46,090 nt of DNA, from the IMG/VR virus record IMGVR_UViG_3300037423_001455, positions 1-46,090 of that record. The stretch is one strand, 5' to 3'. The position numbers were made by a program, and so were the translations under genes. The notes beneath the pieces are model-generated. The model did not search any database and was not told the DNA's origin. It was given only the letters and a program-made list of their open reading frames with translations. Below, one piece after another: positions 1 through 45,850 of the stretch. Numbering within the stretch: position 1 is the stretch's first letter; every line of letters begins with the position of its first letter. The DNA comes from a virus (taxonomy: Duplodnaviria; Caudoviricetes).

Positions 1-160
1 GCTTCAGGATCCTCTGTCGCAGCCCCTCGCCAATCTCATGGCTCGGGTGGCGGGGCAGCGTGGTCTGCTTTCCGTTCAGGTAGACCTTCAAGTGCTTGGT
101 GCCCTCCTCGAATGTCGCCCCTTGGGTAGCGAGCCATCGCCTGAACTCGCTTTGCTTCAT
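1..160 (-). CDS. hicA: HicA-family toxin, 3' end cut by window edge (allele 1)
   Basis: MKQSEFRRWLATQGATFEEGTKHLKVYLNGKQTTLPRHP...; near-identical to 45674-45850. Confidence 0.85.
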   Translation of the reverse strand, partial: MKQSEFRRWLATQGATFEEGTKHLKVYLNGKQTTLPRHPSHEIGEGLRQRILK

Positions 161-2095: not shown

Positions 2096-2305
2096 ATGGT
2101 GCACCTGAAGCGTTGCAAGTGCCCCGCCGCCGAACTGAAGCGGGAGCGGCGCTCTGGCTGGATGAAATTGCTCTTCCCTTCTCGCGGGCTCTACTCGTGT
2201 TACCACTGCGGGAAGCGCATGCTATTGCCCCTGCCGCACACGCTGGCCGAGAGCCTGACGGACGAAAAAGAGACGGCCGCGCGGGGGCGGCCGGGAACGC
2301 AGTGA
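2096..2305 (+). CDS. Small Cys-rich (Zn-ribbon-like) protein
   Basis: GGGGA RBS; CKC...CYHCG. Confidence 0.6.
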   Translation: MVHLKRCKCPAAELKRERRSGWMKLLFPSRGLYSCYHCGKRMLLPLPHTLAESLTDEKETAARGRPGTQ

Positions 2306-2419
2306 CGCGTGTGACAGCAAACCCGCCATGCCGTGGCGGGAGGACAAACCATATCCGATTCACTGAAAGCAGTGGCGCGTCGCTACTCGGGGGAATCCCG
2401 GGAGTCGCCGGACTGAAGC

Positions 2420-2446
2420 AAAACGGCCGCCGGGGCGGCGCGGCCG
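2420..2446 (-). terminator. Probable intrinsic terminator (minus strand)
   Basis: CGGCCGC/GCGGCCG stem followed by TTTTG on the minus strand. Confidence 0.45.
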
Positions 2447-2502
2447 GAGGGTAAGCCCGTCAGGGAGGGTTTCCGGGCTCCCGCGGTGCAGCCCGCGGCG
2501 GT

Positions 2503-2667
2503 CTAACTCCGCGTCTCGGGGATCTCGCGCCATTCGGGCTCGCCCACTGGCCGCAGCGCGCCCAGCGCCGCCGCTTCCTCCGGATTCATCCGCCAGTTGC
2601 TCACGTGCGGCGACTTCTTGCCGGGTCGGGCCGGCAGCAAGTAAAGCGAGTAGGGGACGCGGCGCAC
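2503..2667 (-). CDS. Hypothetical small protein
   Basis: VRRVPYSLYLLPARPGKKSPHVSNWRMNPEEAAALGA...; start uncertain. Confidence 0.45.
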   Translation of the reverse strand: MRRVPYSLYLLPARPGKKSPHVSNWRMNPEEAAALGALRPVGEPEWREIPETRS

Positions 2668-2719
2668 GGTTGCTGAAGCATACGTGCGCGGCCGCTGGCC
2701 GCACAAGTGCCCCGAAACC

Positions 2720-2969
2720 TGTTCCGCAAAGCGCAAATCGGGCGCTTTTTCGCCTCTGAGTAAAATGGCCTGATCCGCTTGAATTGCGGAACAATTTTCC
2801 GTCCAACTAGTTGTTTTTCCTCACCTTCTCGCTGGACTTAAAATCCGCCGCTTCTTAGCCGGAGCGTCCCGGTTCGATCCCGGGTCGAGGCACCAACGCT
2901 CAATTTCTCGCTACTGAATTCGGAGCGCGCCGAGCGGTTGTTCCGCAATTCGGCTTGGTTGTTCCGCAA
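2720..2969. mobile_element. attP-like site: tRNA-derived core with integrase arm-type repeats
   Basis: TGTTCCGCAA at 2720-2729, 2784-2793 (inverted), 2939-2948 and 2960-2969, flanking the tRNA fragment; integrase nearby. Confidence 0.85.
2834..2895 (+). pseudogene. 3' half of tRNA-Leu(TAA) (att core)
   Basis: GGA-CTTAAAA-TCC anticodon arm, long variable arm, CCCGG-TTCGATC-CCGGG T arm, ends ACCA; no D arm or 5' acceptor strand. Confidence 0.9.
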
Positions 2970-2992
2970 AGCAAGATGGCTGAGGAGGCCCG

Positions 2993-4189
2993 ATGCTGCT
3001 GCAGTCCCTGGACCGTATCGATGGGGCCCTGCTAGAAAAGCTCTGTCTCGACCGCTGCCCTGAATCGCAGACGCTGGAATTCAAGCGCGATCTGCCCGGC
3101 AGCATGGACAAGGATAAGCACGAGCTGTGCAAGGACGTTGCCGGGCTGGCCAACTCAGACGGGGGTGACCTGATTTACGGGATCGACGAGAAGGGTGGCG
3201 CCGCGGGCGCAATTTGCCCGGCCACAGGCGAGCCAGCTGACGCCGCCATCCGTCGACTCGGGCAAGTGCTGGACGCCGGCATCGAGCCACGGGTGCAGGG
3301 ACTAAGGCTCCGAGCTGTTGACGTACCGGGCGGCTACGCACTTGTCGTGCGCGTGCCTGGTTCCTTCGATGGGCCACACTGCGTCAGGGCGAACAACAAC
3401 CGCAGGTTTGTGATCAGGAATGGGACGGGAGTGGTCGATATGTCCTTCGATCAGATTCGTGGTGCGTTCGGTCGCACGGCTTCCCTGGCCGAAAAGGCGA
3501 GTGCCTTCATCGCAGAACGGCGCGACCGGATCGCGGTCGGCCATACGCCTGTCGCACTCCTGCCCGGGCCACAGCTCGCGCTGCACCTTGTGCCAATGGC
3601 GGGACAGGCGGGGCGGCGCTCCGTAGATGTCCGGGCGGTCCACTCCACCGGCTTCACCTCGTTCGTGGGTCAGGACTGGGGCGGAGCCAGCTCTGGCCTG
3701 AACCTCGATGGTGTGTACGTGTACCCGGGGGGCGCTCACAGCGACGGCCATTATGGGTACAACCAGATCTTCAGGACGGGCGCCCTGGAGGGGGTGACGC
3801 TGATCGGGGGCGAGGTGGAGCTATCGCCAGGAAAAAAGGAACTGGCGGTCTTCGCGCTGGAGATGTCGCGGTTCGTGCACCGATGGACAACGCGATTCCT
3901 TGCTTCCGCGAACGATTGGGGGTTTGCGGGGCCCGCCTTGCTGGGAATCGCAGTTCTGAACGTCCAAGGCTATAGCCTCGGAATTGGCGCGATGTTCGAT
4001 CCGTTCAGCCGAGCGGCGGCCGATCGGCCGCACTTGGCTCCCCCAGACGCTTGGATTGAGGACGTCGAAGTGGCAAAGGTCGACGACCTTATCCGACCGC
4101 TTCTTGACACCCTCTGGCAGGGGTTCGGCGAGGACCGCTGCCTGGACTTCGACGAAGCTTCGGGCGCATACAAGCCGCGGCGCCGTTAG
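2993..4189 (+). CDS. Schlafen/AlbA_2-domain protein with uncharacterised C-terminal domain
   Basis: GAGGAGG RBS; ESQTLEFKRD and ELCKDVAGLANSDGGDLIYGIDE match the AlbA_2 signature. Confidence 0.88.
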   Translation: MLLQSLDRIDGALLEKLCLDRCPESQTLEFKRDLPGSMDKDKHELCKDVAGLANSDGGDLIYGIDEKGGAAGAICPATGEPADAAIRRLGQVLDAGIEPRVQGLRLRAVDVPGGYALVVRVPGSFDGPHCVRANNNRRFVIRNGTGVVDMSFDQIRGAFGRTASLAEKASAFIAERRDRIAVGHTPVALLPGPQLALHLVPMAGQAGRRSVDVRAVHSTGFTSFVGQDWGGASSGLNLDGVYVYPGGAHSDGHYGYNQIFRTGALEGVTLIGGEVELSPGKKELAVFALEMSRFVHRWTTRFLASANDWGFAGPALLGIAVLNVQGYSLGIGAMFDPFSRAAADRPHLAPPDAWIEDVEVAKVDDLIRPLLDTLWQGFGEDRCLDFDEASGAYKPRRR

Positions 4190-4197
4190 TGCGCTAG

Positions 4198-5361
4198 CTA
4201 CTTCAACGGCCGCACCTTCTTGCCCACCTTGTTGCGGATATAGCGCACCGTCATTGCCTCGGTCGTATGCCCCAGCATCGCCTGCGCGGCGCGCGTTCCT
4301 TCGGCTTCGTCGAGCTCCGTGGCCACCTTGGCGCGGAAGTCTCGGAACTGGAATAGATCCTTTCCGACGCCGGCTCGCTCGCGTGCGTCATCGAACCGGC
4401 CGCGCAGCATGGAGCGCGTAAGCGCCTGCCCGTCCTCGTTGACCAGCAACGCCATCGTGTGCAGCACCGGCTTACCGCCGGCGGCGTGGCGCTGGGCGAG
4501 CTCCCGCTTGAAGGCGCGGATCTCGGTGATTAGATCCGCCAGTGCGCCCTCAATCACGATTCGCAGCTTCATGCGGGTCTTCCCCTGCTGCACCTTTAGG
4601 ATGCCGCCGGGCACCTGGCCCTGGATGTGGGTTTCGCTCACGCGCAGCACGTCCGCTGGGCGCTGGCCGACGATCCCCGCAAGCCGCATTGCGAATTCCA
4701 GCGGCTTATCCGCTTCCGCCTGCACGCGCGCCACCAGCTCGGCGTCCGGTAGCGCGTCGCGGCCTTCCTCTTCGTAGCCCTTCACGCCGGCACACGGGTT
4801 CGGAAGCTTCGTCATGCCGTGCGCCCGGGCATAGTTCCAGATGTGGGAGAAAAGGGCCTTCTCGCGGTTGGCGCGCACATGCCCGTGATCGGGCGGAATC
4901 GGCTGTTCTGGCTTCCCGTCGCGCCGGCGCTCGGCGTTCTTGGCCTCTGCCGCCTCGCGGGCCGCGCGCACGCGCCAAGACAGGTACTGAGTGATGTGCA
5001 CCGGCTCGATCTGCTCGAGCGGTGCCGGCGGGTCACCGAAGAACTGCAGCAGCCAAGCCAGCTCTTTCTCGTTGTCCTGTTGGGTGCGCGGGGCCTTCAA
5101 GGGCAGCACGTCCTTGCGGTAGCCTGCCACCTTCCCGCGGCCGTTCACGGCGTCCAAGAAGGTCACCGGGCCGGCCACAACGGGCGCTGGCTTGCTGGTG
5201 AGCTCGGCCCACTTGGCCACCGCCTCGACGTAGTTGCTGCCCAGCGGGATCTCGCGCCGCGGCCGCTCGCCAGTGTCGAGGTAGTAGTGCACCTTCTGGC
5301 CTCGCGGGCGCGCGCGCATGCCCGGCGGCAGGTTGCTCCATCGGCTGGGCTTGCGCCCCAT
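4198..5361 (-). CDS. int: Tyrosine integrase
   Basis: GQRPADV (R), FRDFRAK, LGH and TVRY (Tyr) catalytic motifs; adjacent att and xis. Confidence 0.93.
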   Translation of the reverse strand: MGRKPSRWSNLPPGMRARPRGQKVHYYLDTGERPRREIPLGSNYVEAVAKWAELTSKPAPVVAGPVTFLDAVNGRGKVAGYRKDVLPLKAPRTQQDNEKELAWLLQFFGDPPAPLEQIEPVHITQYLSWRVRAAREAAEAKNAERRRDGKPEQPIPPDHGHVRANREKALFSHIWNYARAHGMTKLPNPCAGVKGYEEEGRDALPDAELVARVQAEADKPLEFAMRLAGIVGQRPADVLRVSETHIQGQVPGGILKVQQGKTRMKLRIVIEGALADLITEIRAFKRELAQRHAAGGKPVLHTMALLVNEDGQALTRSMLRGRFDDARERAGVGKDLFQFRDFRAKVATELDEAEGTRAAQAMLGHTTEAMTVRYIRNKVGKKVRPLK

Positions 5362-5363
5362 CG

Positions 5364-5582
5364 TCACACTCCTCCGGCGATGACTCTCGGCGACCAGGCG
5401 CGGGTCTCCTGCGGGTTCTCCGCGGACTGCTGGCGGCCTTCCACGGCCGCCCAGGTCACCACCGGATGGCCGGTGGCGTTCACGTGGAATGGTATGCCCT
5501 GGGCGCGCAGCCACTCAACCTGTCGGCTCTTTTGGGCACGGCCGGTCAGGTGGCGGAGGTCGTCGTCCGAGAGAAAGCTCAT
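5364..5582 (-). CDS. xis: Excisionase-like protein (DUF4224 type)
   Basis: MSFLSDDDLRHLTGRAQKSRQVEWLRAQGIPFHVNATGHPVV; directly upstream of int. Confidence 0.8.
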   Translation of the reverse strand: MSFLSDDDLRHLTGRAQKSRQVEWLRAQGIPFHVNATGHPVVTWAAVEGRQQSAENPQETRAWSPRVIAGGV

Positions 5583-5776
5583 CCCCGACACCCCGCCACA
5601 TCCAGCCGCGCCGCCTCGACCAGCACGGCAGTGAGGATGCCCAGGAAGACGTTGAGCACGAGCACCATGATCACCGGGATCGGCTCGTGCTGACGCCAGG
5701 CGCGCAGCACCGCGGCCAGAGGCACCGCCGTCACGCAGGCGAGAACGAGCGCGGCGGTCCAGAGGGTTCGCATCAC
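5579..5776 (-). CDS. Two-TM small membrane protein
   Basis: Two hydrophobic segments; ATGA overlaps with neighbours. Confidence 0.6.
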   Translation of the reverse strand: MMRTLWTAALVLACVTAVPLAAVLRAWRQHEPIPVIMVLVLNVFLGILTAVLVEAARLDVAGCRG

Positions 5777-6641: not shown

Positions 6642-6825
6642 TGCTGGCTCCCGGGATCGGGTCGCCCGGCTTACCGCCGTGCCAAGCCCACACGAACAGC
6701 AGCAGCCAGGTGCCGCGCTCGCGGTCCTCGCGGGAGAACTTGCGCGCGTGGAATTGCAGGTACGCCTGGAGCATCGCCATCGCGGCCAGACGCTGCCGCT
6801 TCGTTGGTTGTTTCCGGTCAGCCAC
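6634..6825 (-). CDS. Hypothetical protein
   Basis: Fills operon with overlaps at both ends. Confidence 0.5.
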   Translation of the reverse strand: MADRKQPTKRQRLAAMAMLQAYLQFHARKFSREDRERGTWLLLFVWAWHGGKPGDPIPGASNG

Positions 6826-7078
6826 GCGGCACCTCCCGCATGCCAACGGAGCGTGCAGCCAGCCATGCGCGGACCTCGCTGTACTTCTCGACGTGCCCGC
6901 ACGGGTTAGACCACGTGTGGCAGGCGAGTTGCCTGCTGCCATCCCAACTCACGCCGTCAACGGGCTCGCCGCGCGGACCGCCGCAGTGGATGCAGCGCCA
7001 CGCCAGCGTGACCGTCATGGCGGAGTAGCCGTCGTGCTGGACGCACGCTGGGATCGTCACGGTCCGTTCAGCAGCCAT
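6818..7078 (-). CDS. Hypothetical Zn-binding protein
   Basis: CIHCGGPRGEP...CHTWSNPCGH; GGAGG RBS. Confidence 0.7.
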   Translation of the reverse strand: MAAERTVTIPACVQHDGYSAMTVTLAWRCIHCGGPRGEPVDGVSWDGSRQLACHTWSNPCGHVEKYSEVRAWLAARSVGMREVPRG

Positions 7079-7541
7079 CGTTGCCTCCCATCCCATAGAC
7101 GTGTTGCAGCAGCTTCTTGCAGTCGGCTAGCACCAGATCGGGATCGGAGTTTTCGGCCGGCACGCGCATCGCGCCATTGCCGGACGTGATGCGCTGGATC
7201 GCGGCATCGATCCGCTGCACCAGTGCGGCCGGGTCGATGGGCTTGTCGCTCCAGCCTGAGCTCGGCGCCGCGCGTTCAACCGCTTCATTGAAGCAGAGCA
7301 CCTGTTCTTCCAATCCGCACCGCGCGCCATGGTGCCACAGGAAGGCGCAGTAGGCCGCCACGTCGCGCGGGTCGCCCTTGTGGACGTGCTCGATCAGCTT
7401 CGCGCGGCACTCGTCCACCCAGCAAGGATCGGCCCAGCCATCGCTGTAGCCGTACTTCTCCTGGGCGGTCGCCAGCTTCTCCTTCAGCGCCGCAGCGAAG
7501 CGATTCACCAGGTCGGCGGTGCGGGGGTGCAGTTCAGGCAT
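7068..7541 (-). CDS. Hypothetical phage protein
   Basis: 157-aa ORF with GGAGG RBS; KGDPRDVAAYCAFLWHHG motif. Confidence 0.7.
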   Translation of the reverse strand: MPELHPRTADLVNRFAAALKEKLATAQEKYGYSDGWADPCWVDECRAKLIEHVHKGDPRDVAAYCAFLWHHGARCGLEEQVLCFNEAVERAAPSSGWSDKPIDPAALVQRIDAAIQRITSGNGAMRVPAENSDPDLVLADCKKLLQHVYGMGGNDGC

Positions 7542-45156: not shown

Positions 45157-45185
45157 ACCCCGGGCGGGAAGGCCCGGGGTTTTTT
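45157..45185 (+). terminator. Late-operon intrinsic terminator
   Basis: ACCCCGGGC-GGGAAG-GCCCGGGGT followed by TTTTT. Confidence 0.88.
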
Positions 45186-45619
45186 CATTGCTCGTTCGCG
45201 ACGCGCTTCACCAGGCGCAGGTCCAGCGACCGGCCCAGCGCCTGCAACGCTGCGTTGATGCTGTCGATCTTCGTGGCGTGCTTCAGGTCTACGAGCCTGG
45301 TGACCTCCTGGGGCGTCTTGCCCATCCTGCGCGCCAGGTCGATCGGCCGAACCTCCTGCTTGATCATCTCGTTCAGCAGGAGCACCTTGGCCGCAACGCT
45401 GGCGGGCAATTCCACCAGCGGCTGGCCCTTGGCCGCCTTCGAGGGCATCGGCACCGGCCGGCGGTCTTCGAAATAGAACTCCATGGCGGTGGCCAGGGCG
45501 TCGGCCGCCATTTCCAAGGCTTCCTCCTGCGTCTTGCCGGACGTGTTGGCCTCCGGGATATCCGGGAAGGTCACCATCCAGCCATCACCATCGGGCTGCA
45601 GATCAGCGGGATAGAACAT
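45185..45619 (-). CDS. hicB: HicB antitoxin with C-terminal HTH
   Basis: VTFPDIPEANTSGKTQEEALEMAADAL; DLARRMGKTPQEVTRL. Confidence 0.93.
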   Translation of the reverse strand: MFYPADLQPDGDGWMVTFPDIPEANTSGKTQEEALEMAADALATAMEFYFEDRRPVPMPSKAAKGQPLVELPASVAAKVLLLNEMIKQEVRPIDLARRMGKTPQEVTRLVDLKHATKIDSINAALQALGRSLDLRLVKRVANEQ

Positions 45620-45673: not shown

Positions 45674-45850
45674 TCACTTCAGCCCCAACTGCTTCAGGAT
45701 CCTCTGTCGCAGCCCCTCGCCAATCTCATGGCTCGGGTGGCGGGGCAGCGTGGTCTGCTTTCCGTTCAGGTAGACCTTCAAGTGCTTGGTGCCCTCCTCG
45801 AATGTCGCCCCTTGGGCAGCGAGCCATCGCCTGAACTCGCTCTGTTTCAT
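45674..45850 (-). CDS. hicA: HicA toxin (allele 2)
   Basis: 58 aa; GTKH, LPRHP; upstream of hicB. Confidence 0.92.
   Translation of the reverse strand: MKQSEFRRWLAAQGATFEEGTKHLKVYLNGKQTTLPRHPSHEIGEGLRQRILKQLGLK

Follow-up and report, generated by a model that had tools for sequence, protein, structure and literature searches.

How is a gene expressed that lies directly behind half a tRNA gene in the attachment site of a temperate phage, and what does it do there? The question is raised by a window of DNA (the whole stretch of 46,090 nt analysed here) in which the gene of a Schlafen-type nuclease follows the 3' part of tRNA-Leu(TAA) and converges on the integrase gene. An initial annotation, made from the sequence without database searches, saw in it a possible tRNase defence gene with an uncharacterised sensor domain, brought under the host tRNA promoter only after integration. 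The reading preferred here, to which an even chance is given, is that of a nearly promoterless pSlfn8-type cassette, the product of which would cut tRNAs and act against phages in the lysogen, and which would be transcribed at least in part by read-through from tRNA-Leu(TAA).

The phage genome and its attachment region

The virus record consists of one piece of 46,090 nt, the termini of which overlap over about 400 nt with few differences. Its gene set comprises terminase, portal, head, tape-measure and tail genes in addition to a tyrosine integrase, and the tRNA segment is flanked by both integrase arms; the window is therefore a circular temperate phage in its attP form. The best-matching sequencing run, a soil metagenome (run X1), contains one contig that covers 2345-5632 with zero differences. 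This run is probably the source sample of the record, so that the identical contig is not an independent confirmation, and a further run (X2) held only scattered short pieces of the window. No match to the phage was found among 50,697 GenBank phages. A search of 401 genomes of one family (that of genome G001, reached through a Roseateles record) found no lysogen and a single close integrase, located at tRNA-Lys. Among the matches listed for the sequencing runs, none was a contig linking a host tRNA 5' half to the phage P' arm. Since the best matches of the tRNA segment among the 401 genomes reach 87% identity, the phage host is likely a member or a relative of the G001 family.

The features of the attachment region and of the genes next to it are the following.

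2720..2729, plus strand: integrase arm-type site P1 (putative role), of repeat family D1, with the same spacing to P2 in relatives
2761..2766, plus strand: -10-like hexamer TAAAAT in the P arm, facing the core, with a poor -35; sole strict match on the plus strand in 2306-2835
2784..2793, minus strand: integrase arm-type site P2, inverted (putative role), belonging to inverted repeats I1-I3 and kept in relatives
2804..2816, minus strand: IHF-like site between P2 and the core, with one mismatch to the consensus
2834..2895, plus strand: attP homology segment, the 3' part of tRNA-Leu(TAA) from the anticodon stem to the CCA (anticodon TAA 2839-2841, CCA 2893-2895), aligned with whole tRNA-Leu(TAA) genes (L194, L240)
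2896..2972, plus strand: ancestral P' arm, with arm sites P'1 (2939-2948) and P'2 (2960-2969), a weak hairpin and no intrinsic terminator
2972..2977, plus strand: CAAGAT, a -10-like hexamer lying where the cassette joins the arm, 15 nt upstream of the ATG; the corresponding -35 region would fall in the arm repeats
2973..4197, plus strand: inserted cassette, made of a leader of about 20 nt with GAGGAGG, the gene and 8 nt; junction seen by comparison with empty relatives
2993..4189, plus strand: pSlfn8-type gene of 398 aa, with an N-terminal Schlafen (AlbA_2) nuclease (about residues 1-160, including E24, E29 and K31) followed by a putatively TBP-like (helix-grip) C-terminal domain (about residues 166-398)
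4198..5361, minus strand: tyrosine integrase (int), 387 aa (PF00589, E 5.3e-13; phrog_1)
5364..5582, minus strand: DUF4224 gene directly upstream of int (PF13986, E 1e-18), likely the excisionase given its position

ARAGORN called no whole tRNA in the window and Rfam found nothing in 2400-3200. A motif resembling the IHF-like site was read by eye at the same place in many of 40 P-arm regions. The four arm-type repeats, at 2720 (+), 2784 (-), 2939 (+) and 2960 (+), form a layout that recurs around the tRNA halves of integrase relatives and are therefore not a product of chance. The initial description of the spacer between tRNA and ORF, with its two arm sites, an imperfect hairpin at about 2929-2954, no strong promoter and an ORF start 98 nt after the CCA, convergent with int, was accurate. 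The arm sites lie at 2939 and 2960, the ATG at 2993 leaves 97 nt behind the CCA, the stop codons of the two convergent genes are 8 nt apart, and a sigma-70 scan of 2300-4400 returned no promoter, to which only the weak CAAGAT has to be added. The hairpin is indeed the predicted minimum-energy fold of 2896-2960, with a z of -1.88 and 10 of 200 shuffles folding as well; it has no U-tract, and the fold of the whole leader gives a z of -0.27. In view of these weak fold statistics it was rejected as a meaningful structure. A terminator scan of 2300-4400 found none on the plus strand.

A Schlafen nuclease with a putatively TBP-like C-terminal domain

The protein matches PF04326 over residues 24-150 (E 2.3e-14; 54.4 bits against a cut-off of 25.3), and its remaining part has no match in Pfam. 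The catalytic motif, E24-x4-E29-F-K31, is intact and corresponds to the Ex4(E/D)xK of prokaryotic Schlafens (PMC13056530). E24 and K31 are invariant in an alignment of 76 homologues, taken from 120 listed, and the whole motif is kept in 201 of 206 collected proteins of 371-419 aa. The predicted model (pLDDT 88.5) has a Schlafen fold, with Foldseek matches at E 4e-6 to 1e-4 to SLFN13, SLFN11, SAMD9 and others, and a profile match relates the protein to CbCash (E 2.6e-4). PADLOC had no match for the whole protein. The AlbA_2/Schlafen ORF with acidic motifs noticed at first sight is thus confirmed by family, motif and predicted structure alike.

The C-terminal domain is also modelled with confidence (pLDDT 95.1), and the model has no significant match in the PDB: the top Foldseek rows are AdoMetDC and TBP, at E values of at least 0.04. 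When its profile was searched against PDB sequences, no match fell below E 0.12, and PADLOC matched none of 68 C-terminal domains. The domain is nevertheless common, with 7,474 clusters found by its profile at E 0.001 or better, that is about 7,500 clusters at 50% identity. Among 149 new top matches of the profile, 89 include the Schlafen active-site region, two (P0228, P0138) carry the domain fused to a TIR, and most of the 60 without the active-site region are shorter proteins, maybe fragments or stand-alone domains. The domain further resembles part of DUF4062 proteins (an Atlas cluster, TM 0.69 between predicted models). Defence sensors typically recur on different effectors, from which we infer a sensor-like module. 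A search for longer fusions yielded two proteins only, both Schlafen. Two Atlas clusters of 571-576 aa join the C-terminal domain to an unnamed partner.

Judged by its sequence, the protein is not new in kind, as full-length homologues are already catalogued as pSlfn8, a Schlafen-TBP-like class of 89 members with a group defence score of 0.82 (Perez Taboada et al. 2026, PMC13056530). In a search of plasmids, 20 records had a coverage of 80% or more. Supplementary Table 2 of PMC13056530 was consulted for seven of them: three are labelled pSlfn8 (NZ_CP066077.1, E 1e-32; NZ_CP014580.1, E 6e-28; NZ_CP041744.1, E 7e-21), two are listed as unannotated fusions, one has a row at another place only and one has no row. 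The present protein shares with the three labelled members the two-domain layout, a similar length and 28-33% identity over 94%, and differs from them in being phage-borne at attP; the boundary of the group is soft, because two full-length homologues stand in the table as unannotated fusions. The C-terminal domain, at first called unrecognised and uncharacterised, accordingly has no Pfam family, but probably falls in a TBP-like class already in this catalogue. As in RorSlfn5 (Schlafen-Ig-like, PMC13056530) and Cash (Schlafen-Csx15, PMC13462974), an N-terminal Schlafen with Ex4(E/D)xK precedes a C-terminal sensor, whereas the C-terminal fold differs from those described for these two proteins and the present gene has no CRISPR link. 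A further Schlafen, that of E. lactis in PMC13552941, has an unknown C-terminus. A literature search on Schlafen-TBP-like proteins, extending mostly to papers outside subscription, found no report beyond these cited precedents.

Distribution of the homologues

The survey of homologue loci covered the best 80 of 217 genome loci and the viral loci. A same-strand tRNA 3' end lies within 300 nt upstream of three of the 81 homologues with enough upstream DNA, against four of 348 other long ORFs from the same loci (p = 0.13). The enrichment of homologues beside tRNA att sites, for which a survey had been suggested, is thus not significant and was rejected. The tRNAs directly before the three homologues are Ala, Val and Glu, in no case Leu(TAA), and one of the three (L067) has, by eye, a terminator and its own near-consensus extended -10. 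Distant homologues stand directly behind tRNAs at L034:4780-5001 (Val) and L032:4850-5001 (Ala); the L034 spacer holds a tandem repeat resembling arm sites, and an AbiU2 gene lies downstream.

The neighbours read in 31 loci include integrases in six (L014, L015, L020, L025, L026, L070), a CBASS pair, AbiU2, transposases and housekeeping genes, most neighbours being without a Pfam family. Of the 401 genomes, 5 match the C-terminal profile, one of these being the seed genome. From this patchy spread and the few tRNA neighbours, the gene can be described as mobile and patchy, and not as tied to tRNAs.

A variable cargo site between att and int

The relatives of the integrase gave 164 rows, from which 30 were set aside for too little downstream DNA, 39 for having no arm pattern and 13 as near-duplicates. 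In type A loci the tRNA points at int, as in the phage; in type B loci the att is inverted. After dereplication, 40 type A loci are empty and 8 filled (n=48), compared with 30 and 4 of type B (n=34). Three more type A loci have cargo: L111 and L134, which the arm pattern did not recognise, and L088, which it misfiled. In the resulting 11 type A cargo cases, eight have the cargo in the direction of the tRNA and three have genes on the int strand. The cargo includes a DUF3800/PDC-M04A protein, an AAA and DUF4276 pair (HEC-01-like), an HNH protein resembling type IV restriction enzymes and a GHKL ATPase, next to a solute-binding protein, Rha and several unknowns. Across this integrase family, the slot between int and att holds variable cargo, other defence-like genes included, and shows the pattern of an att-int defence hotspot: empty in most relatives, occupied by unrelated defence-like cargo in some. 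The tRNAs targeted across the family are Leu, Lys, Met, Asn, Thr and Phe. No close Schlafen homologue was present in 23 integrase-relative loci or in the slot ORFs read later.

In the empty relatives L084, L086 and L094, the int stop follows within a few nt of arm site P'2, and the upstream DNA that belongs to the cassette itself is therefore limited to about 20 nt. The GC3 of the Schlafen gene (0.74, against 0.86 for int) is consistent with its acquisition. An att-int defence hotspot is already known in P2-like phages and PICIs (PMC13586616). The present slot likewise holds variable defence-like cargo between att and int; it differs in belonging to another integrase family, with relatives in a Burkholderiaceae-family genome and many metagenomes. 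The hotspot passages of PMC13586616 do not treat the transcription of the cargo.

Two further observations concern the family. The whole att region occurs in either orientation to int (48 against 34 dereplicated loci), with arm motif and spacings alike in both (e.g. L092, L109, L197, L205). The int-strand slot genes L088:6129-6692 and L134 at about 6824-7513 have an N-terminus resembling the integrase N-terminal region, and the L088 gene matches phage endonuclease families.

Transcription of the Schlafen gene

The tRNA segment and the gene are co-directional, and no terminator-like site lies in the 97 nt between them. The host loci point in the same direction. Among the best 30 host tRNA loci, a DUF6806 gene starts at most 118 nt from the CCA in 21 and at most 17 nt from it in 12, one of the 12 being counted by an upstream in-frame ATG, and a terminator-like hairpin was flagged at three of the 30 tRNA-Leu(TAA) loci. 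In most related hosts, then, the tRNA has no terminator and is coupled to a DUF6806 gene. The closeness of DUF6806 to the CCA and the rarity of terminators suggest that the native host transcript already runs past tRNA-Leu(TAA) into DUF6806; some of the longer spacers carry -10-like hexamers of their own by eye. At L254-L283, the close DUF6806 genes mostly have no evident ribosome-binding site by eye. As is generally known, tRNA transcripts are processed at their 3' end, and such processing might yield a near-leaderless DUF6806 mRNA. Integration at tRNA-Leu(TAA) would shift DUF6806 to attR, away from the tRNA promoter.

The missing terminator is an ancestral trait of the phage arm and not an adaptation, because empty type A relatives often have none either: terminator-like sites (by eye, -13 kcal/mol) were seen in two of the eight loci of this type that carry cargo and in 12 of the 37 empty ones, and the nearest empty relatives, L084 and L086, also have none. 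Terminator loss as an adaptation to cargo was rejected on the same ground, the terminator being absent from empty sister phages as well. Position alone does not imply capture by the tRNA promoter, since the co-directional cargo of L118 and L121 lies behind a tRNA terminator and the convergent cargo of L169 on the arm beyond the reach of tRNA read-through.

A precedent is given by ICEKp1, in which integration puts an element gene under the tRNA promoter and RNase E cuts the co-transcript (PMC13023037). As described there for ICEKp1, ICEclc and ICEEc1, an element gene lies shortly behind the tRNA 3' end with no terminator. In these elements, however, it is int that is captured; it runs in the direction of the tRNA, and its capture was demonstrated, whereas int is convergent here and the candidate for capture is a cargo gene. 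A search of the literature on tRNA-promoter capture of phage defence cargo, for the most part in non-subscription papers, found such precedents only and no report of this kind.

The geometry, the leader of about 20 nt, the DUF6806 coupling and ICEKp1 favour the part of the initial proposal that places the gene behind the rebuilt host tRNA, and a contribution of tRNA read-through to Schlafen expression in the lysogen appears somewhat probable. The words "only after integration" found no support: both -10-like hexamers, that at 2972 and that at 2761, could be active in the circular form, and expression strictly dependent on integration seems unlikely.

The first of these hexamers would be the basis of another source of transcripts, a hybrid junction promoter with CAAGAT (2972-2977) as its -10 and a -35 in the arm repeats, active in circle and prophage and possibly damped by Int. 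CAAGAT keeps the second and last consensus positions, and its first position, which is not T, has parallels in eight of nine hexamers located 8-10 nt before host tRNA-Leu genes (29 loci); the -35, however, matches at two of six positions only, and the sigma-70 scan returned no match. CAAGAT is the sole -10-like match in the 120 nt upstream of the ATG, where one match is about the chance expectation. Among the homologues, 41 of 68 have a -10-like motif 20-50 nt upstream, a mild excess over shuffled sequences (33.5 +/- 3.8), and other slot cargo has -10-like motifs of its own by eye (L099, L111, L118, L121), but a transcript started here would carry no more than about 9 nt ahead of its start codon. 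The integrase promoter of KplE1 overlaps the attL arm sites (PMC2951348), and the arm sites lie within the leader of the first element gene in both cases; the KplE1 promoter drives int and is autorepressed, whereas the phage's own promoter is a weak candidate here. On balance, a functional junction promoter is considered rather unlikely. Under either promoter, Int bound at P'1 and P'2 may modulate expression.

In the empty type A relatives L084, L086, L094 and L194, which have no terminator, transcription continuing from the tRNA would enter int in antisense after some 80-100 nt, and it may act as a damper of int in the lysogen of such empty elements.

Proposed function

According to the reading preferred here, integration would put the P' arm and the Schlafen gene in place of the host gene that follows the tRNA, which in most related hosts is DUF6806. 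RNA polymerase would pass the CCA and cross the 97 nt leading to the gene with its strong ribosome-binding site (GAGGAGG, 2983-2989), and tRNA 3' processing would free the mRNA. The Schlafen protein would remain inactive until its C-terminal domain binds a product of a superinfecting phage; the activated nuclease would then cut tRNAs and slow phage growth. An anti-phage role of the gene is quite likely: the initial prediction of a Schlafen-sensor defence gene is supported by PF04326, the invariant E24 and K31, the SLFN-like model and the pSlfn8-listed homologues. Among the prokaryotic Schlafens tested in PMC13056530, two of seven gave protection and the other five none; pSlfn8 is not among the four architectures tested for defence in that study.

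A bolder form of this reading makes integration itself the on-switch, with a toxic gene silent on the circle and following the growth-linked tRNA promoter in the lysogen, and sees in the C-terminal domain a swappable phage sensor for Schlafen, TIR and DUF4062 effectors. It is held to be doubtful. Less probable again is a passenger gene, poorly expressed or without anti-phage role. The single occurrence of the gene, with no close Schlafen homologue in the 23 integrase-relative loci or the later slot ORFs, would fit a passenger, but the ORF and its catalytic motif are intact and the ribosome-binding site is strong. The 30.4% of pSlfn genes without defence neighbours and the five of seven without protection (PMC13056530) would fit it as well, yet other defence-like genes occupy the same slot.

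Promoter switching as in ICEKp1 (PMC13023037), with the host tRNA promoter used in the prophage and the P-arm TAAAAT (2761) in the circle, has little probability. This hexamer faces the core and no terminator follows on the plus strand in 2300-4400, but its -35 is poor and its placement is inconsistent among the 40 P-arm regions. It is a possible promoter in the circle, or possibly part of a protein-binding site. A conserved P-arm promoter was rejected, as TAAAAT is not consistently present in these regions.

Human SLFN11 and SLFN12 prefer tRNA-Leu(TAA), and the att tRNA could by analogy be the substrate of the phage nuclease too. Such a specific coupling is highly improbable: to the adjacency in one genome and a distant homologue (L070) in an element at tRNA-Leu(TAA), located on the opposite strand and beyond its integrase, are opposed the three homologues directly behind Ala, Val and Glu tRNAs, the at least six tRNA types used by the integrase family with unrelated cargo, and the bacterial Schlafens so far described, which cut tRNA-Lys(UUU) or many tRNAs. 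RorSlfn5 mainly cuts tRNA-Lys(UUU) (PMC13056530); the cuts made by Cash fall in 28 tRNAs, for the most part in the T-loop, and a preference of SLFN11 for type II tRNAs is reported in the same article (PMC13462974). With other tRNAs beside homologues and in the integrase family, Leu(TAA) specificity was rejected. The match with the human substrate is therefore best read as a coincidence, which the initial annotation had allowed for, and the identity of the att tRNA is likely incidental.

Significance of the locus

The distinctive feature of this locus is a near-promoterless insertion behind a tRNA that is already read into a protein gene in related hosts. If the gene works as proposed, it would offer a small, one-gene system in which to test pSlfn8, a large class known from the catalogue, as well as a C-terminal domain found on at least three effector types. 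If read-through is the main source of its mRNA, promoter capture would apply to defence cargo of prophages as well as to ICE integrases, and would explain how a bare ORF becomes a lysogen-specific defence in one insertion step; cloning such genes "with native promoter" could then give false negatives. With a junction promoter of its own, it would be one of the ordinary moron-type defence genes, in a hotspot of a kind already known.

Other genes near the attachment site

A stand-alone ATP-dependent DNA ligase domain gene (PF01068) lies close to attP at 913-1530 on the minus strand, and a similar ORF is found near att in L085. A HicB-like gene occupies 45185-45619 (minus strand), and the small ORF just upstream of it, at about 45674-45850 / 2-160 (minus strand), is its likely HicA partner. 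At several positions, the terminal overlap is not identical in its two copies.
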